Of a stretch of 26,179 bases of DNA, positions 1 through 16,255 are shown one piece after another (position 1 is the stretch's first letter; every line of letters starts with the position of its first letter). The DNA is from a virus. The notes beneath the pieces are model-generated. The model saw nothing but the letters and a program-made list of their open reading frames with translations, had not been told where the DNA came from and did no database searches. The stretch is taken from positions 1 through 26,179 of IMG/VR virus record IMGVR_UViG_3300006045_000004; one strand, given 5' to 3'. The translations under genes were made by a program, and so were the position numbers.

Positions 1-253
1 TTACAGTATCAATTATATCATCACTATTATTATCAACTACTTTTTCATATGGCACTTCAAATATAAAATTTTTTATTCCTTGATTATCTATAAGGTAATG
101 TTTTAATAATTTATTATTATCTGGGTCATAAAATCTAATATTCTTTAAATCAGGTCTTAAATATTCACTCGCATAACTTTGAAATTCAGTCATCTTATCA
201 AATAAAACTTTTTCTCCATTTATACCATTTTGAATATAAACACTTTCATCCAT
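1..253 (-). CDS. DUF2341-like domain protein, putative tail adhesin/fibre component; truncated at window edge and absent from the ORF track
   Basis: ATG at 253 with GAGGAGG upstream; frame open to base 1: MDESVYIQNG...RPDLKNIRFYDPDNNKLLKHYLID...FIFEVP, resembling the DUF2341 'D..DIRF.D....LL.yw.......vkvP' motif. Confidence 0.75.
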   Translation of the reverse strand, partial: MDESVYIQNGINGEKVLFDKMTEFQSYASEYLRPDLKNIRFYDPDNNKLLKHYLIDNQGIKNFIFEVPYEKVVDNNSDDIIDTV

Positions 254-254
254 A

Positions 255-2222
255 CTAAACTTCCTCCTCAAAATTTAAAACATTACTTGGTAACACAGTA
301 GCTTCTGGAATATTCCATAAACGAGCATAAAATACTTTTTTCTGTAACAACTTATCTCCAATATCATTATCAGTTAAAGAACCAATTTTAACATTATTAC
401 TATCATAAAAATCTATAAACGAAGCATTAACACCACTATTATTAACAATACTTAATGGATATTGAGTGTCAAATTCAGTAATATCAATTAACACACTTTC
501 ATATCTTTTTTCTGGCATTGTATAGAAAGCTCTTCCTTGAACAACATAAACTACACCTTGTACATCAGCAGAACCACCTGAATGAGTAATATTAAATACT
601 ATTTGTGATGAATTATTAGTTTGTTTTATATTGTTAATGTTAGTACATTGTTTATCACGGAAAACATAATTTCTTTGTTGTATATCGCCTGTATTCCATT
701 GTGTATCCCATGAAGATAAACTTGAATCTGTACTTGATAATGTATATCCAATAAAGCTTGTGTTATTTTTTGTTTGTAAAGGTGTACTTGCAGAACTTCT
801 AATAAATACAGGATTAAAATTAAATTGTTTAACATTTCCATTCGCATTTATACCCATATTATAACCAAAATCAAAACCAAGATTATCAAAACTTCCAGAA
901 TCTTTATAATACCTAACACTACAATATGGTGAAATAGCTTGATTAACAATATTACCAATAGTACCTATTTGTCCTCCAGTAGCACAACTAAGCAAATACA
1001 TATTTATTGGTGCACCATACCATTCTGAACTAAGTAAAGTTCCAGAAGAACAATTTGCAGTAGCAAAATATCCCTTAGCTATACTTAAATCAACAAACCC
1101 ATTTCCTGCGTTTGGATGTTTATATCCAGTATCATATAAATATGAAGGATAATATTTCGTATTAGTTCCTTTATTAAACATTATGCTTTTAATATAAAAT
1201 GGTGTTCCTCCAAGTGCTGTATTTGCATTTACTTGGAAATACATATAAGGATTTGTTGTATCCATATTAACTGATACACTTATTCTTTGCCAATCACCAG
1301 TACCTGTAAATCCAACAGCATTAGAACCACTACTTGCAGTTCTACTTGCAGCTAATGGCACAACTCCTAAACTTCCTATTTTTCCACTTGGATATTTTAT
1401 ATCCATTGATAATGTGTAAACTCCATTTTCACTACTATTAGCAACATATTTCATGCAGGGTGGTTGAGCCCATCCTGTATCTGCATCTCGCTTAGTACGA
1501 GATTGGTTATCATAATTCCATAAATAAAGATTTTCAACAGCTGCATTTTGTGATTGTGTTAATTGGTAACATTTGTCTCCATTGTGAGTTGTTACACTCA
1601 TATAGCTTGTTGCTGGTTGCCATGTTGTTCCACTATGCCTGAACATATTATCACTTACAGCTAATTTAACATCATTTCCATACATTTCGCTTAATAAGTT
1701 TTCTGGTGTTTCAGAAAATTCTGAATTCAATACTGATAAGCTTTTAGGTTGATAAGATTCTCCCTCATCTTTATAAGTTACTTTAAAATCATTTTCTTGT
1801 AATGTGTAATAATCATCTAATATAAAATCACAATCTTGAATATTTAAGTTTTCAAAATTTATTGTATTTAAACTAATTGTTTGAAGTGGTGTACTAAGAG
1901 ACATAATCAAATTCATCCAACTTGATAAATCATTCATTATATCTTGTTTTTGAACACCTAAACTTGGTTCAAATCCATCATCATATTCAAATCTAAACAA
2001 ATACCAATTATTATTTCGTGATACAGCAAAATATTTATAATCACAAAAAGCAAAAATTCCTTCACTATTATTAGAACTTGTTATAGAGACTATTTTTTCT
2101 CCAACAACATTTTGTGACAAAGTTTCTGTTATTAAATTTGTTGCTACTTTAAATTTTACCTTAGCCATTATATCTAATGATTTAGTTACATTTTTTTGTT
2201 CAAACATTATTATTTTGCTCAT
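255..2222 (-). CDS. Putative tail adhesin / receptor-binding protein (~655 aa) with a CBM-like jelly-roll segment
   Basis: Start more likely ATG 2222 (MSKII; ATGA overlap with upstream stop) than 2240; central 'YTLSMDIK...GDWQRISVSV...FYIKSIMFNKG...YYPS' resembles carbohydrate-binding-like modules of phage tail proteins; beta-rich S/T/N/G composition. Confidence 0.6.
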   Translation of the reverse strand: MSKIIMFEQKNVTKSLDIMAKVKFKVATNLITETLSQNVVGEKIVSITSSNNSEGIFAFCDYKYFAVSRNNNWYLFRFEYDDGFEPSLGVQKQDIMNDLSSWMNLIMSLSTPLQTISLNTINFENLNIQDCDFILDDYYTLQENDFKVTYKDEGESYQPKSLSVLNSEFSETPENLLSEMYGNDVKLAVSDNMFRHSGTTWQPATSYMSVTTHNGDKCYQLTQSQNAAVENLYLWNYDNQSRTKRDADTGWAQPPCMKYVANSSENGVYTLSMDIKYPSGKIGSLGVVPLAASRTASSGSNAVGFTGTGDWQRISVSVNMDTTNPYMYFQVNANTALGGTPFYIKSIMFNKGTNTKYYPSYLYDTGYKHPNAGNGFVDLSIAKGYFATANCSSGTLLSSEWYGAPINMYLLSCATGGQIGTIGNIVNQAISPYCSVRYYKDSGSFDNLGFDFGYNMGINANGNVKQFNFNPVFIRSSASTPLQTKNNTSFIGYTLSSTDSSLSSWDTQWNTGDIQQRNYVFRDKQCTNINNIKQTNNSSQIVFNITHSGGSADVQGVVYVVQGRAFYTMPEKRYESVLIDITEFDTQYPLSIVNNSGVNASFIDFYDSNNVKIGSLTDNDIGDKLLQKKVFYARLWNIPEATVLPSNVLNFEEEV

Positions 2223-3580
2223 TCTACCACCACAGTCCAATTAGATAAAGTTGAATATCTATTTTTAAAATTATTACCTATTTGTAAGCTTGATGCATAA
2301 ATTTTCAAATCTGATGTATTAGGACTTGAGTAAAATGGAGTATTGTTTGGTGTATAAATTGATTTTCCAGACCAATCAACATTTCCAATTATAATCTTTT
2401 CTAAAACTTGACCACCATTCATAAAATTATAATTATCACCAGTAGCATTAACAAGTCCACTTAAATTAATAGTTTTTAAATCATAACAAGCTTCTAAACA
2501 TCTTGTACCAATATCAGTTACATTAACAAATCCACTAAAATCTATTTCTTCTACACCATAAAAATGTCTGCACATATAATAAAGAGTTGTTGTAGCACTA
2601 TAATTATTTCCAAATTTAATTTTTTTTATAGTATTTAAAGGTATTGGGTTATTATTTATGATAACATCTTGTGCATTTTGATTATTAACTTGAAAATTTG
2701 TTACTGGTGTTGTATTTGGTTCTATCTCTATCTTTGTTCCATCAAATAATTGTATATAAGAATCATAATTTTCTATTGTTATATAAAAATTATTTTCATT
2801 AAAAAGTTTGTTAAATATATTAATTTCAGCTAAATTACCTATAATTGAATTATCTTCTTCTTTTTTAAATAATATATCACCATTATCATTACCTGTATAT
2901 TTTTTAATATTAATTGGATATGTTGTTATATTTGAATTAAAATTACTCATATTATATATTTTTCCTAATTCAATATCCATTTCAACATCTTCAAGAACAT
3001 TATATATTATTGGTTCAACATCTGATGGTATTTCTTCTAAATTAATTATATCTTCGTTATTATATTCATCTTCTTTTATCCAATAGTCATCTGGGTCTTG
3101 TTGTTTGATAGTCATGTTTTCTGGTTTTCTTGGAGATATTACTTCTCCACCAGGGGTTATTTCTTTTTGAAGAAATTCTATTTTTAAATTTCCATCAACA
3201 ATAGTAACTTGATATTCTGGAGTTTTTTCAATAACAGCTTCATTCATATCAGCTTTAAATAAGAAAACACTATTATCATTAGGATATGTGTATGATTTTG
3301 GAAGAATATGTAATATTATTTGTGTTGATGTTGTAAAAAATGGTAATTTAATATAATAATAATCATAATAAAGATTATGAGGTAATAATGTTTTCTTTTC
3401 ATCATCAAGTGTAAATCTTATATTTGAATATGTTTGATTTAATTCTTCATCTATGTTTTCTGTTATGTCTGATTTTTTTATTTTTATTGTTATTTTTCCA
3501 GAACCTGTTTGTGGGTTTGGATTATTTAGTGTTAATGTGTATTCTTTGTGTAGACATTGAAGTAATTCATTTATATCCAT
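2219..3580 (-). CDS. DUF2341-like N-terminus plus C-terminal BspA-type leucine-rich repeats; putative adhesin
   Basis: N-term 'YSNIRFTLDDEKKTLLPH...YYIKLP'; C-term LRR-like 'VEEIDFSGFVNVTDIGTRCLEACYDLKTINLSGLVNAT...FMNGGQVLEKIII'. Confidence 0.65.
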   Translation of the reverse strand: MDINELLQCLHKEYTLTLNNPNPQTGSGKITIKIKKSDITENIDEELNQTYSNIRFTLDDEKKTLLPHNLYYDYYYIKLPFFTTSTQIILHILPKSYTYPNDNSVFLFKADMNEAVIEKTPEYQVTIVDGNLKIEFLQKEITPGGEVISPRKPENMTIKQQDPDDYWIKEDEYNNEDIINLEEIPSDVEPIIYNVLEDVEMDIELGKIYNMSNFNSNITTYPINIKKYTGNDNGDILFKKEEDNSIIGNLAEINIFNKLFNENNFYITIENYDSYIQLFDGTKIEIEPNTTPVTNFQVNNQNAQDVIINNNPIPLNTIKKIKFGNNYSATTTLYYMCRHFYGVEEIDFSGFVNVTDIGTRCLEACYDLKTINLSGLVNATGDNYNFMNGGQVLEKIIIGNVDWSGKSIYTPNNTPFYSSPNTSDLKIYASSLQIGNNFKNRYSTLSNWTVVVE

Positions 3581-6084
3581 TATTTCACCATCAGGTTGTT
3601 TGTACTTGTTTTTCCGTCTAAAAATGTCATTATGTTCCAGAATCCTTTCTGTATTCCTGTTATTGTTATATTTTCTTCTATTGTGTCATCTGGTTCTAAT
3701 TCATTTATTACGATTTCGTTTCTATCTAATTCTAATTGACTTGATGCTAAAGTTTTTATTACTTTATTTTCTAACTTTACATCTCCAATATTTATTAGTT
3801 TAACTTTTAAATTTGCTGTTCCATCTATTTCAACTATTCTTGGGTTTATATCAGCAGATAATAAATATAATGGTAATTTTTTTCTATAATATATTATCAT
3901 TTTAGCATTAAATATTGTTACACTACTGTTTAATGCTGAATCATTATTAGTTATTCCTATTTGGAATCCAAAATCTTCATCTACTAATTGTTCTCTTGTA
4001 ATTCTTGCTTGATTAAATAAATCTTTTTTTCCACCAAATTTAAGTATTTGTCTTCTTGTTCCTATAATTTTAGACTGTTGACAAGGAACTTCTTCTATAT
4101 CACCATCTTTTGGTAATAATAACATAGTTCTTTCATCATCTTTTTTATTAGCATATCCATTATCAGCAATCACATCAACTAAAATTTCAACACCTTCAAT
4201 TTTAATATCATTTGGTAGGAAATTTAAATCAAATTTCATCAATATACTTTTAGACTTATATTTTTCATTCGTCACATAATTTCCATATTTTGCCCTAATT
4301 TGAGCATTACTATAATTATCACTATCACTCATAATATTATCTAAAAAACTCCACTCAACATTATCCTTAAAATCATTCTGAACAACACTTAATGGATATA
4401 TTGGTTCTGTTTCTGTGAAATAAATATCATAATTTGGTTCATTAGTTTCAGTCATTACAACTAACTCTTCAATAAATGGGTCAGTTGACTGTATTCTAAT
4501 TAAACTTGTATTATCATTATCTTTCAAAAAAGTTGAATTAATTTTATCTTCATTAAGAACATATTCACTCAAAAGTCTTCTTTCATACCAATAATCTTGT
4601 TCTACTGGGTATGGATAGTGTATTGGAAATGTTCTTATTTCATCATCAATATCTATTTCTTTTTTATAATCTCTTCTTGGTAATCCATAAATTTTACCAA
4701 ACTTATCAAGATTAGGATTAATTAAAAATCTTTCATCATCAGTTTCTTTTTCTTGTGGAAACCCTATTTGTATTGGATTATTTAATCCCCATAATTGTAC
4801 TTCTGCGATAAATTTTTCTACTGGAAATTGCTTTGTTATTCTATCATATACAATTTTATCTTTTTTTTGATATGATTTCTTCCATAAAGATTTCCATCCA
4901 TTTTCATTTGGATTAAATTTAAAATCATATAATCCATAAAGCTCTATACTTTTTAATGGTAAGAATGTAAGTGTTGATAATTTTATATTTTGTTCTACTG
5001 TAAATATTGGTTTTTCCATCTCTATTGTAATATTATATATATTATTAAATGATGAAATTATCTCCTCTTCACTTTCTATTTGTAATTCTATTTTATTTTT
5101 ATATAATGTTGAACTACTTGCATTATATTCATCTTCAAACCTATCAATTAAATTACTTGCAGGTATGTTTAAATTACGGTTTACATACCAAACATTATCT
5201 TTAATTATAGGGTTTTTAAAGTATTTTGCATCTCCTATGTTTATATATTTTTTTTCTTCATCATTATATAGATATAAGTATCCATCTTCTATATATGGCT
5301 CGTTTCTAACAAGTCCAATTACATAACTATTTCTATATTTTTGTGTTTCATTATCATAAACATACCAATAATCGTTTTCTATATACGGTTTTTTATTATT
5401 TTGCTCATAATTCGAATCAACAAATACTTCTTGTATAGCATCATAAACAAACCAATTTTCTTCTTCTATGTACGGATTTGGTGTTTGTGGAACTGCTGGT
5501 ATTTCTGTATTTATATCTATAAACCATGTTTTATTTTTAACATAAGGTTCGTTATTTGAAGCATTATATCCAGTATCTTCATAAGTTTCTGTTTCTATAT
5601 TGTATACTTGCCATTTATCATCTATTATTTTTTTTGCTTGTTGTTCTGTGTTTGTTTTTGATAGTTGTCCATCTATATATAATGCTGATAAGTTTAAATC
5701 ATATGTTATTTTGTCTGCTTTTATTTTTGGATTTATGTATTCTACTGTTTGTGTTCCGTTTTTTAGTGTTAGGTTTTTTAAGTAGTTGTCTGGATGTCCT
5801 TTTTGAATTTCAATGGTTATTTTTCCTCTTGTTGGATATTTTGTTATTGGTAGTTGTATTGATTGGTTTATTGTTTCAAATGTTCTTTTTATGATTTTGT
5901 TTTCTTCTCTTAGTGCTTCTTTCCAACATTGTACTGGTTGTTCTATTCTGTTTGTTATTAGTTCGTATATGTATTTAAATTCCTGGTCTCCACTATATTC
6001 GTTAATTATTTTAATTAATAAATCTTCAGACCACCATAATGGTAAACTATGGTCAATACTATATCCTATGTTACTATTAAGCAC
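3580..6084 (-). CDS. Large baseplate wedge / tail-fibre attachment protein (834 aa) with internal aromatic repeats
   Basis: Long ORF (GTG start) directly after J-like and gp25-like genes; 'LDKFGKIYGLPRR' resembles the wedge (gpI-like) motif; product inferred mainly from context. Confidence 0.55.
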   Translation of the reverse strand: MLNSNIGYSIDHSLPLWWSEDLLIKIINEYSGDQEFKYIYELITNRIEQPVQCWKEALREENKIIKRTFETINQSIQLPITKYPTRGKITIEIQKGHPDNYLKNLTLKNGTQTVEYINPKIKADKITYDLNLSALYIDGQLSKTNTEQQAKKIIDDKWQVYNIETETYEDTGYNASNNEPYVKNKTWFIDINTEIPAVPQTPNPYIEEENWFVYDAIQEVFVDSNYEQNNKKPYIENDYWYVYDNETQKYRNSYVIGLVRNEPYIEDGYLYLYNDEEKKYINIGDAKYFKNPIIKDNVWYVNRNLNIPASNLIDRFEDEYNASSSTLYKNKIELQIESEEEIISSFNNIYNITIEMEKPIFTVEQNIKLSTLTFLPLKSIELYGLYDFKFNPNENGWKSLWKKSYQKKDKIVYDRITKQFPVEKFIAEVQLWGLNNPIQIGFPQEKETDDERFLINPNLDKFGKIYGLPRRDYKKEIDIDDEIRTFPIHYPYPVEQDYWYERRLLSEYVLNEDKINSTFLKDNDNTSLIRIQSTDPFIEELVVMTETNEPNYDIYFTETEPIYPLSVVQNDFKDNVEWSFLDNIMSDSDNYSNAQIRAKYGNYVTNEKYKSKSILMKFDLNFLPNDIKIEGVEILVDVIADNGYANKKDDERTMLLLPKDGDIEEVPCQQSKIIGTRRQILKFGGKKDLFNQARITREQLVDEDFGFQIGITNNDSALNSSVTIFNAKMIIYYRKKLPLYLLSADINPRIVEIDGTANLKVKLINIGDVKLENKVIKTLASSQLELDRNEIVINELEPDDTIEENITITGIQKGFWNIMTFLDGKTSTNNLMVK
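5150..5630 (-). repeat. About six degenerate protein repeats of the form PYI..(d/n).W.(V/L)Y(D/N)......Y in the 834-aa protein
   Basis: IIDDKWQVYNIETETYEDTG; EPYVKNKTWFID; NPYIEEENWFVYDAIQEVFVDS; KPYIENDYWYVYDNETQKYRNS; EPYIEDGYLYLYNDEEKKYINIG; NPIIKDNVWYVN. Confidence 0.8.
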
Positions 6085-6086
6085 TT

Positions 6087-6539
6087 TTAAACACCTCTAC
6101 TAATAATGTTTGGTTTTTCTCTTGTTGTGAATGAATTTATTATATCCATTGCTATATGACTTACACCAGTAAATCTTCCATATATACTATCTACATCTAC
6201 TTCTATCTTAACATAAGCTCTACCATAAGGTATTACTCTTATTTTTGTAAATAAATTCACTTCTTCATATTTATCTTGTATATCTCTGATATGAGATTCT
6301 GCTTCTCTAAGTAACAATCCGTCTAATGGAGAACCTAAAAGATTCCATATTCTACAACCATAAGTTTCAAGACCTACACCATCTATAACACCATAAGGGG
6401 TTTTTATTTCTCCTTCTATAGCTTGCCAAAGTGCTTCTGCATCTGATATCATTTCTATATCATCTTTATCAACTGTGGTCTTTTCCCAAAAACCATCATA
6501 CATATCAGTTCTTAGGTCTTGTATATCTCCTTCTGGCAT
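6087..6539 (-). CDS. Baseplate gp25/gpW-like sheath-initiator protein
   Basis: 150 aa; 'EALWQAIEGEIKTPYG...YGCRIWNLLG...LREAESHI' fits the gp25/gp46 pattern; adjacent to baseplate J. Confidence 0.75.
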   Translation of the reverse strand: MPEGDIQDLRTDMYDGFWEKTTVDKDDIEMISDAEALWQAIEGEIKTPYGVIDGVGLETYGCRIWNLLGSPLDGLLLREAESHIRDIQDKYEEVNLFTKIRVIPYGRAYVKIEVDVDSIYGRFTGVSHIAMDIINSFTTREKPNIISRGV

Positions 6540-6540
6540 T

Positions 6541-7677
6541 TTAATAACCTTCGTAATTTAATTTTGTAGTTACTTTATTAGGGTATAAATTTTCTGATAC
6601 TCCAACAACAATATGTTTATCATCTATTGTTAAGTCGTCATTGGTTATTTTAATATTAAAATCTAATACTTTAAATTCACTTGGAATTGAGTATTGTATT
6701 GATGATTTTAAATCATTTAATGATAAAGATTTTCCTACCATCATTCCTATTCCAAAATAATCTTGTATATTGTCTTCTATAAATTTATAAAGTTCTTGTG
6801 ATTCTCCATATGTTATATTTTTTTCTCCAGTTAATAATATTTCAATTAAAAAATTTACATATAATCTTTCAACTTTTTGGAATCTATAATTTATTCCAGC
6901 TATTCTATTATAGTTTAATTCAGTTTTAATATCTTCATATTCAAATTCATTTGGAATATCTAAAGCTAATAATACACTTCCATAACCATCATAATATTCA
7001 ACTATTTTATAAAATCTTTTTGTTAGTCCAAGTTCTTCTATTTGATTTTCTATATCTCTTTCTGTTCCTTCTCTTAAATATCTCCATGAAGTAGATAACG
7101 CTCTTTCTCTTGCACTTTCAAGAGATTCGTCATCTCTTCCACTCCAAGCACTTTTTGGATTTGTTACTGATATATCTGCTCTATATTCTGATTCAACAAG
7201 ATATACAAGAGTATCTTCATCTATATTATAAGCTGAACCAACTTCTGTACAATAAGCAAGAACTTTTGCTTTTTTAGTACCTTTCCACATATAAAGGTCT
7301 TCAACTGTTTCAAAAATTACTGGGTCTGAACCAAGAGTAGATACTGTAAATCCTGCTGGTATTACAATATTATCATTAAAAGTTGGGTCTCTTGTAAATT
7401 CAAGAACCACTTTTGCATTTGAAGCTATTCTTATTGATATATATGGTTTTAATAGTGATTCTAATAACGCTTCATCTGTTACCGTTTCAAGAGTAAATTG
7501 TGAAACATATTCATTCATTATACTTATTAAACTTTCAAATTGTCTTGCAAAAACAGCAAACAGTAATCCAATCCTTCCTCCTTCAAATCTTCTACTTAGA
7601 AGTCCAACTTCTATTGCTGATGTGAAAAGGGCTGTCAGAATTTCTTCTTCTGACATATACATCTCACTCATAACCAT
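6541..7677 (-). CDS. Baseplate J-like wedge protein
   Basis: 378 aa; 'IVIPAGFTVST...FETVED...AYCTEVGSAYNI...VTNPKSAWSGRDDESLESARER' is typical of Baseplate_J; GGAGAG upstream. Confidence 0.9.
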   Translation of the reverse strand: MVMSEMYMSEEEILTALFTSAIEVGLLSRRFEGGRIGLLFAVFARQFESLISIMNEYVSQFTLETVTDEALLESLLKPYISIRIASNAKVVLEFTRDPTFNDNIVIPAGFTVSTLGSDPVIFETVEDLYMWKGTKKAKVLAYCTEVGSAYNIDEDTLVYLVESEYRADISVTNPKSAWSGRDDESLESARERALSTSWRYLREGTERDIENQIEELGLTKRFYKIVEYYDGYGSVLLALDIPNEFEYEDIKTELNYNRIAGINYRFQKVERLYVNFLIEILLTGEKNITYGESQELYKFIEDNIQDYFGIGMMVGKSLSLNDLKSSIQYSIPSEFKVLDFNIKITNDDLTIDDKHIVVGVSENLYPNKVTTKLNYEGY

Positions 7678-11676: not shown

Positions 11677-12303
11677 ATGTTTATTTCGTTAAATCAAAGT
11701 ATAATGAATAAAGCACATCCGATAGGTACAGTTTACCAAAATGTAGCTGACAACACAAACCCATACACCTTGTTTGGTGTAGGAACTTGGCAAAGAGTTA
11801 CTGGTAAATACTTACGAGCAATGACCGACCCAGAAGGTTCTGGTGCAACAGCACTAAATCCTAAAATGGGAGGAACAAACAGCATAAACATTGATTGGCA
11901 ACATAATCACGGAAACACTAATAATATTAGTGGGGCTCCAAATACAAATTATACAAGTACGCCAAAGAATAGTGGAGCAGATTATCCGAATGTATCAACA
12001 ATTGGAAACCACGCTCATTCTGTTCGTCTTGGTTGGGCAATTCCATCAAGTGGGTATCGTATTAGAACAACAACTGCTCTTGAATTAGGAGCTGTAAGTG
12101 GTAGTTATACTGGTTCAACTGTTGTAGTTGATAATCCACTATCCAATGTATCTGGTGATAGTGGTTCACATACTCACTCTATGCCACACGACCATTTAAT
12201 GACACATTACCATACTACAAATAATGCTGGAACTCAAACAAGTTCAGTTAAAACGATTGAACCTGAATGGGTTGGTACATATTCGTGGATAAGAGTTTTA
12301 TAA
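11677..12303 (+). CDS. Alternative (antisense, probably silent) fibre-tip cassette 1; T4 gp10/gp12 C-terminal-like domain with HxH motifs
   Basis: Begins SLNQSIMNK, identical to residues 127-135 of 12298-13320; HPIGTVY...NPYTLFGVGTWQ...HNH...HAH...HTH...HDH...HYH...WIRVL; no N-terminal domain and no obvious RBS. Confidence 0.85.
   Translation: MFISLNQSIMNKAHPIGTVYQNVADNTNPYTLFGVGTWQRVTGKYLRAMTDPEGSGATALNPKMGGTNSINIDWQHNHGNTNNISGAPNTNYTSTPKNSGADYPNVSTIGNHAHSVRLGWAIPSSGYRIRTTTALELGAVSGSYTGSTVVVDNPLSNVSGDSGSHTHSMPHDHLMTHYHTTNNAGTQTSSVKTIEPEWVGTYSWIRVL
11685..11712 (+). repeat. Outer crossover site of segment 1: TTCGTTAAATCAAAGTATAATGAATAAA
   Basis: Exact reverse complement of 12916-12943; core TTCGTTAAA-TCAAAG-TATAATGAA. 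Confidence 0.95.
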
Positions 12304-13320
12304 TACTCGTATCCACATTGAAGTAAGGATATGGTCTGGATTTATACTATCTGGATTAGCACTACCTGCATTATTTGTTGCGTGAATATGGGTCATTAAA
12401 TGGTCATGAGATAATGTATGTGTATGTGCCGTTCCAGGCATATTTCTACTATTAGCATAAGTATCATTTGCTGGAACAGTATCATTAATAACAAGTTTAT
12501 TACGATTATTGGTTGAAGAACTAATATTTGTTATATCTGTATTAACTCCTCCAGTTCCTAATAAAACAACTCCTGCTAATCTTGAACCAGCTTCATTAGT
12601 AAAGAACAATCTATCTGGGTGTTTATGTGATGACTCAGCACTTGTAGTTTGTGCAGAAGCACCTGAGTTCATTGCATTACTTGTGTAAGAACCGTTTGGT
12701 GCTGATGTTATATTATTAGTGTTACCGTGATTATGTTCTGGTAAGTTATTTAAACCAAGTTTTCCAGTATATTTAACTGTACCATCTAATGTATCGCCGA
12801 ATTTCATTCCTCTTGGATATGCTCCTTCGATTTTCTGCCAAGTACCCACTCCAAAGAGTGTGTAAGGGTCAGTATCATTTAAAGCATTCATATATACATA
12901 TCCAACTGGGTGACTTTTATTCATTATACTTTGATTTAACGAATCATATAGTTCTCCTTCTCCATTTTTTAAATCTTCTAACATTTGATAAATATCTATA
13001 AGGTCTAATTCTTCATTATTTATTTCTATCTTGTTTGCTTTATCAGATACATCTACATTTCCATGTAAATTTCCTAATAAAGTCCAACCATCAAATTTAT
13101 GATAAAGATTACCGTTTCCACTATTTATATATACATCACCATCTACTCCTATTTGTTCTGATGGTGGGTCATCTCCTCCAACGAAAAGACTCCAAGGTGT
13201 TTCTATACTACAATTTGTATATATGTCTCCGTTTTCATCGAATATTAAATCTGAACATACGGATTTGTGCTTTATGCACAGTTTTTCCCATTCGTTTGTT
13301 TCTGGATTTTTAAATTTCAT
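12298..13320 (-). CDS. Tail fibre 1 (340 aa): constant N-terminus (~126 aa) plus switchable tip
   Basis: 'GGDDPPSEQIGVDGDVYINSGNGNLYHKFDGWTLLGNL' fibre module, then HPVGYVY...DPYTLFGVGTWQ...HxH motifs...MWIRVL. Confidence 0.9.
   Translation of the reverse strand: MKFKNPETNEWEKLCIKHKSVCSDLIFDENGDIYTNCSIETPWSLFVGGDDPPSEQIGVDGDVYINSGNGNLYHKFDGWTLLGNLHGNVDVSDKANKIEINNEELDLIDIYQMLEDLKNGEGELYDSLNQSIMNKSHPVGYVYMNALNDTDPYTLFGVGTWQKIEGAYPRGMKFGDTLDGTVKYTGKLGLNNLPEHNHGNTNNITSAPNGSYTSNAMNSGASAQTTSAESSHKHPDRLFFTNEAGSRLAGVVLLGTGGVNTDITNISSSTNNRNKLVINDTVPANDTYANSRNMPGTAHTHTLSHDHLMTHIHATNNAGSANPDSINPDHILTSMWIRVL
12916..12943 (-). repeat. Inner (intragenic) crossover site of segment 1
   Basis: TTTATTCATTATACTTTGATTTAACGAA is the reverse complement of 11685-11712. 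Confidence 0.95.
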
Positions 13321-13358
13321 AATAATCTTTAATTTTTTAATAATGTTTTGTAGTATTC

Positions 13359-13391
13359 TACTAATTTTTCAAAAATTAGTATTTAAATACT
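13359..13391. promoter_or_regulatory. Overlapping palindromes containing an archaeal TATA-like element; possible promoter/operator or recombination accessory site
   Basis: TACTAATTTTT-C-AAAAATTAGTA (13359-13381) and AGTATTTAAATACT (13378-13391), which reads TTTAAATA on both strands. Confidence 0.45.
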
Positions 13392-13404
13392 TATTTTTCT
13401 TCGT

Positions 13405-13433
13405 TATATAATAATATAATGAACAATGAACAT
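13405..13433 (+). repeat. Outer crossover site of segment 2: TATATAATAATATAATGAACAATGAACAT
   Basis: Exact reverse complement of 14365-14393; core at 13400-13423 is TTCGTTATA-TAATAA-TATAATGAA. Confidence 0.95.
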
Positions 13434-13874
13434 GATATAGGTTCTATCTATTTCACTTTTAATGTAAGTGATAATCCTAATAATAAATATCCTGGAACAT
13501 GGATATTATTAGACTCAAATACATATCTTATAAGTGCAGGTAATGGAATTAATGCCAAACAAAGTATAGGAAATAATCAAAGAAGTATAGATATTGATTG
13601 GTTACATACTCACGCTCAAAACGCACATAAACATAGTTTATATGTTAAAGCACCACCAGCACCAGCAGGTGGAATAACAGTTCCAGCTTCTGTTCATGTA
13701 AACAATACATTTCCAGTAGATTGGAATACATCACAAATAACTAATCAAAATGTGATGAATAGTATGAATGATATAACTGCTACAAATCAAAATTCTGGAA
13801 CTATGAGTAAAACACAAACTTTTGATAATCGTCCTAATAGTACAGCAATTTATATGTGGGAACGAGTTAGCTAA
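13419..13874 (+). CDS. Alternative (antisense) fibre-tip cassette 2
   Basis: MNNEH identical to 13867-14790 at the repeat; GSIYFT...DNPNNKYPGTW...YLISAG...IDIDWLHTH...DNRP...YMWERVS. Confidence 0.85.
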   Translation: MNNEHDIGSIYFTFNVSDNPNNKYPGTWILLDSNTYLISAGNGINAKQSIGNNQRSIDIDWLHTHAQNAHKHSLYVKAPPAPAGGITVPASVHVNNTFPVDWNTSQITNQNVMNSMNDITATNQNSGTMSKTQTFDNRPNSTAIYMWERVS

Positions 13875-14790
13875 CTCTTCTCCACATGTAGAAAGCTATA
13901 CTTTTTGGTCTGTTGTCTTTAGTTGTTGATTGCGTTCCTTTGTTTACTATTGACATTGTTGTTGTTGGATTACCAGTATTACCAGTATAGCTTGTTACTT
14001 GTGATTGTAATCTTCCAGATTGAACATTTCTAATTCCCCAATTACTTGGTACAACATTTCCAAACCAATACCAATCATCTGTATTATCTACATCAGTACC
14101 AGCAGTTCCTGGTATTGTAGCTCCCACAGTTTCCTTATTTGAATGTCTATGGATATTTGTGTGTAAATGATTAGCATTATTTAAATCGTGATTATGTAAC
14201 CAATCAATATCAATTGTATTAGAACCAATAGTATTATTACCACCTGTAATAGTTGAACCAGCACTAACCAAGTATTGATTCTCATCTATAAGAGTCCAAG
14301 TACCTGGATATTTGTTGTTTGGGTTATCTGTGTTTAATATTGTAATATATAAACTACCCACAGAATGTTCATTGTTCATTATATTATTATATACAGAAGT
14401 ATATAAATCTCCTTCTCCATTTTTTAAATCTGTTAATTCTCCTTGCATTTGACTTAATGCTTGTAATAATAATGTATCATCATAAAACCCACCTTGTTCT
14501 TCTTGCTGACAATTTTCTTCTGGGTCTATCCATAAATCATATCCTTCTGGTGGTTCTTCATTACCTATCCAGATTTTATCTTGTCCACTTCCACCTCCAC
14601 TAAAACTATTAGCATCATAGAGTTTTGGTGTTCCTGAGTTATCTGTTCCATATAATTTATTATTTTGTGTTGTTTTATTGACTTTGTTATCTAATTCTGT
14701 TTGTACTAATTGGAGAGCTCCAGCTATCATTTTATTACAATAATCTTTGGCATCTTGCCATATTTTACCGAATTCGTCTCCAATTGCCAT
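13867..14790 (-). CDS. Tail fibre 2 (~307 aa): constant N-terminus plus switchable tip
   Basis: Start at ATG 14790 (MAIGDEF) preferred to TTG 14799; 'KIWIGNEEPPEGYDLWIDP'; tip GSLYIT...DNPNNKYPGTW...HNH..HLH..HRH...DNRP...YMWRRVS. Confidence 0.9.
   Translation of the reverse strand: MAIGDEFGKIWQDAKDYCNKMIAGALQLVQTELDNKVNKTTQNNKLYGTDNSGTPKLYDANSFSGGGSGQDKIWIGNEEPPEGYDLWIDPEENCQQEEQGGFYDDTLLLQALSQMQGELTDLKNGEGDLYTSVYNNIMNNEHSVGSLYITILNTDNPNNKYPGTWTLIDENQYLVSAGSTITGGNNTIGSNTIDIDWLHNHDLNNANHLHTNIHRHSNKETVGATIPGTAGTDVDNTDDWYWFGNVVPSNWGIRNVQSGRLQSQVTSYTGNTGNPTTTMSIVNKGTQSTTKDNRPKSIAFYMWRRVS
14365..14393 (-). repeat. Inner (intragenic) crossover site of segment 2
   Basis: ATGTTCATTGTTCATTATATTATTATATA is the reverse complement of 13405-13433. 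Confidence 0.95.
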
Positions 14791-14791
14791 A

Positions 14792-15418
14792 TTAATCAAG
14801 ACTGTTATTACTTCTAAATGTACTACTTATTGTATTTATTGTACTTTCTATTTCTGTTCTAAGGTTTCCAACTGTTGTATCTACATATATTTTATTCGCT
14901 GCTGCTGTATTTGTTGTTGGGTTTGGTACTATGGGTTCGTTAGTGAATGTTTTGATTCCAGATATGTTTTGATTTCCACTTGTTTTCACAACATTTCCAT
15001 CAAGAGTTGTTATTAACCCTCTTATATCTGTATGTGCTGTTCCACTTGTATTATGGTCATCTATTGCTTGTGCTAATTCTATTGGGTCTACTGTATCACT
15101 TACTGTTGAATATAATACCCATGTACTACTGCTTCCAGCCACTCTTTGGTATACTCCTTTGAGTTTTTCTGTTGGTTGTCCAGCATTTTCTGTTTTTCTA
15201 ACCATACATAGCCAGTCGAAACTTTGTTCTCCTCCACTTATAACTGGTAAATTGCTATATAAAGCTACACTTGGTTTCCATTTTTGTCCACCAGTAGTTA
15301 ATTGAGCAATTAAATCAGAAACATCACTTACTGTTAAAATCGTAAGACCAGAAATCTTACTATCAGTATAATCTTTACCGTCCTTATAAACCTTATTAAA
15401 GGCATCTACGAGTGTCAT
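14792..15418 (-). CDS. Tail fibre shaft/connector protein (208 aa)
   Basis: Fibre motifs 'WKPSVALYSNLP', 'AIDDHNTSGTAHTDIR' and 'SGNQNISGIKTFTNEPIVPNPTTNTAAANKIYVD'. Confidence 0.8.
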   Translation of the reverse strand: MTLVDAFNKVYKDGKDYTDSKISGLTILTVSDVSDLIAQLTTGGQKWKPSVALYSNLPVISGGEQSFDWLCMVRKTENAGQPTEKLKGVYQRVAGSSSTWVLYSTVSDTVDPIELAQAIDDHNTSGTAHTDIRGLITTLDGNVVKTSGNQNISGIKTFTNEPIVPNPTTNTAAANKIYVDTTVGNLRTEIESTINTISSTFRSNNSLD

Positions 15419-15425
15419 TTTATCT

Positions 15426-15695
15426 TTATCCTAATCCATTATTTACTCTAAATTGAACTGAAACATAACTAACAGCAGTTTCAATATCTTCAAATTTACT
15501 ATTAATTTCTGTTTTATTATAATAATTACTTAAATCAACATTACCAGATTCCAATAAACTTATTATATCATCAATTTCATTTTTTTTATAATAATTACTT
15601 AAATCAACAGAAACTGAACCACATTCTTTAAATTTTAAATCTGTATATGCTTTAGCAATCTCCAACAGCTCTCTGAAATAATCATCATAATTCAT
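15426..15695 (-). CDS. Small fibre connector protein (89 aa) with two VDLSNYY.K.EI repeats
   Basis: 24-bp direct repeat TTATAATAATTACTTAAATCAACA at 15517-15540 and 15586-15609; ATGA overlap with the upstream gene. Confidence 0.75.
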   Translation of the reverse strand: MNYDDYFRELLEIAKAYTDLKFKECGSVSVDLSNYYKKNEIDDIISLLESGNVDLSNYYNKTEINSKFEDIETAVSYVSVQFRVNNGLG

Positions 15696-16255
15696 AATCC
15701 ATTTTCCTTCTTAAAATCGTCAACAGCTTTCAAAATACTATCTTCCAAAGGTTCACCATTAAACTTAATAGTAGAACCAACTATATCAACAGAATTATCA
15801 TCAATGGATATTTTGTTTTCATTATATGCTATTTCACTATTACCACTTCCTACTACCAAATATCCATTATCTTTTTCGAGGGATATTGTTCCTGTTTGTA
15901 GTATGTTTTGTGGTGTGTCATCTATTATTGATATTATGTTGTATTCTCTTGATATTTTATCTAATGATACTTTTACTTTTATGTTTTTTGTTGGCACGAG
16001 GTATCCGTTTTTTTGTATTCCTTCTGGTATTTCCATTATATTTGATGTGTATGTACATCTGTATGGTGTATTATCAACTATTACTATCCATCCGTCTGAT
16101 TTTATGTATTTTAATTCTATTTGTTTTAATATTCCTTCTTCGTTCCATACATCATCTTGTCTTTGACCAGAACTACTACTTACTCCTCTCTCTGGTTGTA
16201 CAAATTTATTTAATGCTTTTTGTAATTGTACATTTGTTTTTTTATTATATTTCAT
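15692..16255 (-). CDS. Probable baseplate central spike (gpV/gp45-like)
   Basis: Follows the hub gene; beta-rich N-half and short beta-strand repeats 'GTISLEKDNGYLVVG...NKISIDDNSVDIVGSTIKFNG'. Confidence 0.6.
   Translation of the reverse strand: MKYNKKTNVQLQKALNKFVQPERGVSSSSGQRQDDVWNEEGILKQIELKYIKSDGWIVIVDNTPYRCTYTSNIMEIPEGIQKNGYLVPTKNIKVKVSLDKISREYNIISIIDDTPQNILQTGTISLEKDNGYLVVGSGNSEIAYNENKISIDDNSVDIVGSTIKFNGEPLEDSILKAVDDFKKENGL

Follow-up and report, generated by a model that had tools for sequence, protein, structure and literature searches.

Two antisense fibre-tip cassettes between in-frame inverted repeats: a candidate pair of inversion switches in the tail module of a methanogen myovirus

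Can a virus of pseudomurein-walled methanogens change the tips of its tail fibres by inverting its own DNA? The question is raised by a locus of two adjacent fibre genes, each joined tail-to-tail to an antisense paralogue of its own tip, which was found in the window, i.e. the stretch of 26,179 nucleotides analysed here, comprising the first 26 kb of the 135,897-bp IMG/VR record IMGVR_UViG_3300006045_000004 (window positions refer to this whole stretch). An earlier note, made from the sequence alone, had interpreted the locus as a two-locus combinatorial host-range switch. The reading favoured here, to which a probability of roughly 0.6 is given, is that of a pair of tip-inversion switches which works, or worked until very recently, by means of an enzyme acting in trans, and which resembles Mu G, phiCh1 and Rin. 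Isolates of Methanobacteriales viruses are very few, and the pseudomurein-walled hosts include the dominant methanogens of gut and rumen.

The basic anatomy described by the earlier note, in which each fibre gene is paired with an antisense, tip-only gene, was recovered from the open reading frames (ORFs) and from alignments (Table 1). The cassettes lack an N-terminal anchor, and each of them aligns solely with the C-terminal part of its neighbour, from the repeat onward exactly, with amino acid identities of 42-46% (cassette 1 and the tip of fibre 1) and 43-45% (cassette 2 and the tip of fibre 2). Since the closest relative of each cassette by BLASTP is the tip of its own neighbour (42-43%), each stems from a local inverted duplication. 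The partners overlap by 6 nt in pair 1 and by 8 nt in pair 2, their stop codons being shared within a palindrome. Both cassettes are the sole plus-strand genes of a unidirectional structural block of ~35 kb; the remaining plus-strand ORFs of the window are shadows within minus-strand genes, so that the previous description of these two as its only credible plus-strand genes is correct. Moreover, counted from the repeat, they remain open for 205 codons (cassette 1) and 155 codons (cassette 2) in a genome of 27.6% G+C, where by our own estimate about one random codon in 12 would be a stop, so that they seem to be maintained as coding sequence.

Table 1. Coordinates of the fibre-tip locus in the window
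Feature	Position	Strand	Description
Cassette 1, tip-only Gp10_C paralogue	11677-12303	+	208 aa; Pfam Gp10_C 39.3 bits, residues 9-207
Putative invertible segment 1 (silent tip and expressed tip of fibre 1)	11685-12943		1,259 bp; perfect 28-bp inverted repeat
IR-L1, putative crossover site heading cassette 1	11685-11712	+	exact reverse complement of 12916-12943; 9-6-9 dyad TTCGTTAAA-TCAAAG-TATAATGAA
Palindrome TTATAA, symmetry axis of segment 1	12298-12303		Leu-stop common to fibre 1 and cassette 1
Fibre 1 gene, receptor-binding-protein-like	12298-13320	-	340 aa; Gp10_C 42.0 bits from residue 133
IR-R1, putative crossover site within fibre 1	12916-12943	-	codons for SLNQSIMNK
Fibre 1 constant N-terminal part, outside segment 1	12944-13320	-	~126 aa
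Spacer between fibre 1 start and IR-L2	13321-13404		contains palindrome 13371-13398
Putative invertible segment 2 (silent and expressed tips of fibre 2)	13405-14393		989 bp; perfect 29-bp inverted repeat
IR-L2, putative crossover site	13405-13433	+	exact reverse complement of 14365-14393; related left arm TTCGTTATA begins at 13400
Cassette 2, tip-only paralogue of fibre 2 tip	13419-13874	+	151 aa from ATG; in-frame homology from 13398
Palindrome GTTAGCTAAC, symmetry axis of segment 2	13866-13875		Val-Ser-stop common to fibre 2 and cassette 2
Fibre 2 gene	13867-14790	-	307 aa; weak Gp10_C match, 22.2 bits
IR-R2, putative crossover site within fibre 2	14365-14393	-	codons for YNNIMNNEH
Fibre 2 constant N-terminal part, outside segment 2	14394-14790	-	

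The domain that is duplicated belongs to the fibre/baseplate tips described by Pfam Gp10_C (PF21939), whose gathering score of 27 bits is passed by fibre 1 and cassette 1; fibre 2 falls below it, and cassette 2 is not matched by the profile, though it is 43% identical to the tip of fibre 2. In the PDB, a tip profile matched T4 gp10 (E ~1e-4), the match being confined to about the first 30 residues. Furthermore, fibre 1 falls in the PHROG families tail protein and baseplate wedge, and its residues 88-198 are 31% identical to receptor-binding proteins of Lactococcus 936-type phages. The AlphaFold2 model of fibre 1 (9 sequences; mean pLDDT 43) is unusable except for a helix at residues 123-136, which carries the peptide encoded by the repeat.

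Each pair is bounded by a perfect inverted repeat of the length and at the position previously given, 28 bp in unit 1 and 29 bp in unit 2. No other perfect inverted repeat of at least 20 bp is found in the window, and the longest inverted repeat (arms within 3 kb) averaged 14 bp over 100 dinucleotide-preserving shuffles, with a maximum of 20. The repeats sit in frame where the homology between fibre and cassette starts, at the beginning of the Gp10_C domain, and both are read in the fibre frame as SLNQSIMNK and YNNIMNNEH, as had been claimed. When either segment or both were inverted in silico, all frames stayed open, and the protein of fibre 1 changed from 340 to 331 aa and that of fibre 2 from 307 to 288 aa, in agreement with the lengths calculated earlier. 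Repeat 2 includes the 14 nt that precede the only ATG of cassette 2 and extends imperfectly to 13399-13433 (35 bp, 2 mismatches), while the in-frame homology SSLYNNI reaches 21 nt upstream of that ATG.

These repeats are more similar than the protein that they encode would require. Within each of them, all nine codons (9/9) are identical between the copies, as against 44 of 92 and 42 of 70 identical residues elsewhere, and the five conserved residues that directly follow repeat 1 share none of their codons (0/5). The Ser codon of the left arm is TCG, which accounts for 1.5% of the Ser codons of the genome; cassette 1 and fibre 1 both have it, and so do the untranslated stretch ahead of cassette 2 and the fibre gene of a related contig (L019, see below). 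Judged by this codon identity, by the retention of the rare TCG and by the extension of repeat 2 and its homology upstream of the cassette 2 ATG, the repeats are constrained as DNA, beyond a conserved protein motif.

The four sites have the arms TTCRTTAWA and TATAATGAA in common, and their central 6 bp differ between the units, being TCAAAG in unit 1 and TAATAA in unit 2. This pattern occurs in the 136 kb of the record at the four crossover points only, plus one match with 2 mismatches. In a dyad scan with 9-nt arms and 2-8-nt spacers, the 9-6-9 arrangement was the best for site 1 (7/9) and for the fibre site of L019 (8/9), while in site 2 a 9-4-9 arrangement scores equally (8/9); inspection of the site sequences by hand gave at most 6 of 12 complementary positions in 12-2-12 registers. 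With their possible 6-bp spacers, the sites look more like those of tyrosine recombinases than like those of serine recombinases.

The favoured reading brings these elements together in the following way. The late tail operon would contain two adjacent, separately bounded tip-swap modules, in each of which the promoter-proximal constant part of the fibre would lie outside a segment of ~1-1.3 kb holding the expressed Gp10_C-type tip and a silent tip placed tail-to-tail with it. If the in-frame 28/29-bp repeats at the hinge helix recombined reciprocally, the constant part would become joined to the other tip, presumably one that binds a different receptor, and independent flipping of both units would yield four virion types. 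With a tyrosine-type enzyme, the shared arms and differing central 6 bp would allow no cross-recombination between units. The catalyst would act in trans, as a host-encoded enzyme or as a viral protein outside the known recombinase families; general recombination at short homologies would be the less likely agent. The more specific proposal that a lytic-type, recombinase-less virus runs a four-state host-range switch with a host or unrecognised viral recombinase acting in trans, the different 6-bp spacers keeping the flips independent, is a tentative one, possible rather than probable. Inside segment 2 there is also a second perfect inverted repeat, of 19 bp (13590-13608 / 14193-14211), at the conserved IDIDWLH motif, and crossover there would give chimeric tips.

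Several observations weigh against a switch that operates today. The public contigs, 5-6 in number, which come from at least four samples and are 100% identical to the window, are all in one orientation, with 4-6 of them crossing each junction; these are assembled contigs, and assemblies drop minor variants. They probably represent one clonal population; the virus is present in the samples SRR6220664, SRR5248970, JGI 3300002504 and JGI 3300002505. Neither the flipped fusion proteins (searched with fibre 1 and fibre 2) nor the silent copy expected after a flip was found among 5.8 billion protein clusters, where the proteins turned up in their assembled form only. A six-frame search of the whole 135,897-bp record gave no match to Resolvase (PF00239; a control search matched 12 of 14 genomes), Phage_integrase (PF00589), XerA, large-serine Recombinase or the IS110 DEDD domain, and Pfam scans of 100 further ORFs returned replication, repair and anti-defence functions and no recombinase. 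Random 28-mers reach a dyad of at least 7/9 in 10% of cases and of at least 8/9 in 1.2%, and the dyad symmetry of the sites is on its own only suggestive. In the two relatives that cover the fibre region, the cassette is decayed in one (L019) and missing from the other (L021), so that cassettes are dispensable. Finally, co-directional tip-only Gp10_C proteins of ~200 aa occur as ordinary genes in a 219-kb phage. As regards the two-locus host-range switch of the earlier note, the anatomy and the in-frame hinge repeats have stood up, and the sites are, in addition, constrained at the DNA level. Its four (2x2) receptor-binding states are an inference, as a known recombinase gene in the record, a second orientation among the public contigs and flipped fusions among the protein clusters were looked for in vain.

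Since no known recombinase is encoded in the record and no dif-like host site was found, the enzyme, if any, would have to act in trans. The idea of a hijacked host Xer system acting at a dif-like site was dropped: the site pattern, searched in 185,579 species genomes, gave 87 scattered matches, none of them dif-like and none in fibre genes (4, also scattered, in Methanobacteriales), so that no conserved host site emerged; 21 matches in viruses were likewise all outside fibre genes, and a stricter pattern for site 1 had no match in metagenomes. The only transposase-like match of the record is P0160 (225 aa, record 112611-113288, + strand; PHROG 'transposase'), which is rejected as an invertase on present evidence, as it has a solo Nop/Transposase_20 domain without a DEDD or nuclease domain. 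The PDB entry that matches it best is 9mty, of a TIGR-Tas protein, and P0160 is possibly a TasA-like protein that binds DNA under RNA guidance in an archaeal virus; no guide array was detected near it. It sits among PD-(D/E)XK, primase-like, ERCC4 and MjaI-like genes.

Relatives were obtained by a protein-cluster search only. The first of them (L019, ENA contig ERZ25038426, 4,985 bp, ~1x coverage), whose baseplate J is 48% identical to that of the window virus, encodes one collagen-repeat fibre of 586 aa with the same hinge (…ELYDSLYTSIMNK…) and an N-terminus related to that of fibre 1. At its positions 1458-2235, an antisense remnant of 87 codons, starting at LYTSIMSK, lies downstream of the fibre, and a 19-bp perfect inverted repeat is placed at the same hinge motif as site 1 of the window. 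Because fibre, antisense cassette and repeat occur together at the same hinge, the layout is, on this comparison, inherited within the virus group. In the second (L021, from SRR32407041), three co-directional Gp10_C fibres of 488, 236 and 347 aa are found at 4187-7420, with no antisense cassette. Compared with the window, its tips and N-termini are shuffled, the tip of the 347-aa fibre being closest to cassette 2 (38%). The N-terminus of fibre 2 is related to two of these fibres; the 236-aa one keeps 76 residues before the hinge and resembles the constant part of fibre 2 in that N-terminus. A further relative, contig L138, stops short of the fibres. PhiF1, the nearest named virus, lacks the fibre module. 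Searches with single proteins (fibre 1, fibre 2, hub) gave no close relatives in IMG/VR, a DNA search had no match in GenBank phages, and the baseplate J profile had none in IMG/VR or in JGI metagenome contigs; scans with the tip profile returned no relative in GTDB genomes and distant partial matches only in IMG/VR. In the 219-kb phage contig (L017, JGI 3300010167), positions 1700-7261 hold seven small co-directional genes of ~194-235 aa, five of them with Gp10_C, which form an array of tip-only fibre proteins.

The missing recombinase, the single orientation of all public contigs together with the lack of flipped proteins, and the decay or absence of the cassettes in relatives would also suit a locked relic or reservoir, in which tips were duplicated locally in inverted orientation and no dedicated flipping exists now or ever existed, with rare general short-homology recombination or gene conversion at most; such a locus would supply new tips over evolutionary time and would not be a reversible switch. 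The virus does encode PD-(D/E)XK and ERCC4 nucleases for general recombination and repair, and rare flipping by general recombination at the short repeats may occur. Nevertheless, this explanation is considered unlikely, since both cassettes are open throughout and the repeats match perfectly, even at a very rare codon, which points to ongoing selection on sites and coding sequence. Moreover, 28-29 bp is short for general recombination, and in both units the tracts of identity end sharply, at the same hinge, unlike the variable tracts left by conversion. A chimeric or mis-joined contig could also have created inverted copies, and several public contigs do end inside the region (12105-12181, 13482-13487, 14091 and 14571-14630). 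None of these ends coincides with a repeat, which makes them uninformative on flipping as well; cassettes that are 42-46% identical to the tips are not collapsed repeats, and the same arrangement was reproduced, 100% identical over all four repeat copies, in assemblies made independently with three pipelines from at least four samples. An assembly artefact is thus effectively refuted.

It is still less probable than the relic that the plus-strand ORFs are stand-alone antisense genes, expressed independently as tip-only Gp10_C proteins, for example as extra receptor binders bound to the baseplate, with the repeats reflecting merely a conserved motif and AT-biased codons. Both ORFs do start with ATG, a TATA-like TTTAAATA lies ~30 nt upstream of that of cassette 2, other runs of 6-8 identical codons exist at the conserved motifs HNHGNTNN and IDIDWL, and co-directional arrays of tip-only Gp10_C proteins (194-235 aa) are known from the 219-kb phage and one other contig. 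Against this, a Shine-Dalgarno motif is absent upstream of both cassettes, while ~89% of the ORFs of the genome have a match of at least 3 nt, and the DNA upstream of cassette 1 amounts to 35 bp only, common to the divergent gene of the 409-aa protein. The ORFs run towards the fibre genes and overlap them at the stops, within a long unidirectional operon, whereas the small fibres of close relatives keep their N-terminal anchors. The conserved TCG codon, and a perfect repeat and homology that reach upstream of the cassette 2 ATG, are also at odds with a mere protein motif. The AT-rich palindrome that contains TTTAAATA (13371-13398), situated in the 98 bp that separate the start of fibre 1 from cassette 2, is a possible archaeal TATA box for fibre 1, terminator or promoter of cassette 2.

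A pair of tip-inversion switches, preferred here over these alternatives, has well-established counterparts, the same design being a proven switch in Mu, P1, p15B and the Rin phages (PMC6109161), as well as in phiCh1 and phiH1 (PMC6471424). The locus shares its design with these fibre switches and is a member of none of them, because a recombinase gene is missing with respect to every system compared and, for the serine systems, the site architecture differs too. In the G segment of Mu (Gin), the C segment of P1 (Cin) and the Min system of p15B, the constant 5' part of the fibre gene lies outside and opposed 3' parts lie inside the segment, giving alternative host ranges (PMC6109161). The window has the same disposition of a constant N-terminal part outside, opposed C-terminal parts inside and in-frame inverted repeats, but those systems carry a serine invertase gene beside the segment, whereas no PF00239 match is found here in six frames. 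The crossover sites of Mu, P1 and p15B are 26 bp long, with two 12-bp half-sites and a 2-bp core. The sites described here do not conform to such a 12-2-12 arrangement (at most 6/12 complementary), their best dyad being 9-6-9, or equally 9-4-9 in site 2. Also unlike those phages, no fibre-assembly gene lies inside the segment, and there are two separate units for two different fibre genes. In populations of Mu, P1 and p15B both orientations coexist; the public contigs of this virus show one of them, and minor variants are dropped by assembly.

The archaeal precedents are phiCh1, phiH1 and ChaoS9, in which recombination between two inversely oriented fibre copies changes the one that is expressed and an integrase/recombinase gene lies between the copies (PMC6471424). 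Here too an archaeal tailed virus has two inversely oriented copies; in contrast to those viruses, the copies abut with shared stops, the record has no PF00589 or XerA match, and there are differences in host clade, in fibre family (here Gp10_C) and in the sequences of the sites. In the Rin shufflon of Bifidobacterium prophages, a tyrosine invertase acts on a constant N-terminal part of the receptor-binding protein (Rc) and promoterless variable C-termini (Rv), each preceded by a short site (PMC6109161). A short shared in-frame site before each variable cassette is a feature in common with Rin and with R64 Rci. Nevertheless, Rin has at least three cassettes, 11-bp sites and a flanking rin gene, as compared with one cassette per unit, repeats of 28-29 bp and no recombinase in the present locus, which likewise differs from R64 Rci in having no flanking tyrosine invertase and one silent cassette per fibre gene. 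Inversion without a flanking recombinase has been described at a short repeat of the bifidophage Bb423phi2, for which a trans-acting invertase was proposed by the authors (PMC6109161). In that case both orientations are found in related genomes and the genes are of unknown function, unlike the fibre tips and the single orientation of the contigs seen here. Mpi of Bacteroides fragilis is a trans-acting invertase with distant sites. Compared with a regulon of the Mpi type, the virus encodes no recombinase of a known family, according to the six-frame and Pfam searches.

As to the virus itself, the ends of the record are direct repeats (window 1-158 and record 135740-135897, identical at 156 of 158 positions), and the genome is therefore probably complete, being closed or terminally redundant with ~135.7 kb, while the IMG/VR entry gives the record as linear and 85% complete. 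The window represents a single long minus-strand tail module. In gene order, sheath and tape measure are followed by a hub that has a transglutaminase domain and by small fibre-like proteins; after the two fibre genes come the 409-aa protein, a lysin with a pseudomurein-binding repeat and a C39-like peptidase, and finally baseplate J. Methanobacterium virus PhiF1 has a hub that is 31% identical to the one encoded here, MSTV1 and Drs3 match it more weakly, and Peptidase_C71 is present in related viruses. The assignment to a Methanobacteriales myovirus is well supported by these genes, namely sheath, tape measure, baseplate J, the lysin with its pseudomurein-binding repeat and the PhiF1/MSTV1/Drs3-related hub, and the methanogen myovirus suspected at the outset is borne out. 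Three small proteins of 187, 89 and 208 aa are encoded upstream of fibre 2 (window 14792-16255), the last of which matches tail-fibre PHROGs and the BppL_N motif; the ATG of fibre 2 is coupled to the stop of this 208-aa gene (TAATATG).

The earlier note knew of no described example in methanogen viruses, and the collection of papers searched agrees with it, as it yielded no description of an invertible fibre in such a virus and the MSTV1 paper has no text on inversion. What is new here is the host clade, the doubling of the design into adjacent units that have different site cores and belong to two fibre genes, and the lack of a known recombinase in an apparently complete genome. If true, the switch would be the first one based on DNA inversion in methanogen viruses, and phase-variable host range would be extended to them from the viruses of haloarchaea. 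The swappable tips mark domains of ~150-210 residues that would meet the receptor, and they offer four natural variants for comparison. Should flipping be real, its enzyme would have to come from outside the switch, which would point to exploited host recombinases or to an unrecognised recombinase family of archaeal viruses; if there is no flipping, the locus would still illustrate cleanly how duplication, inversion and exchange of fibre tips take place at a conserved hinge.

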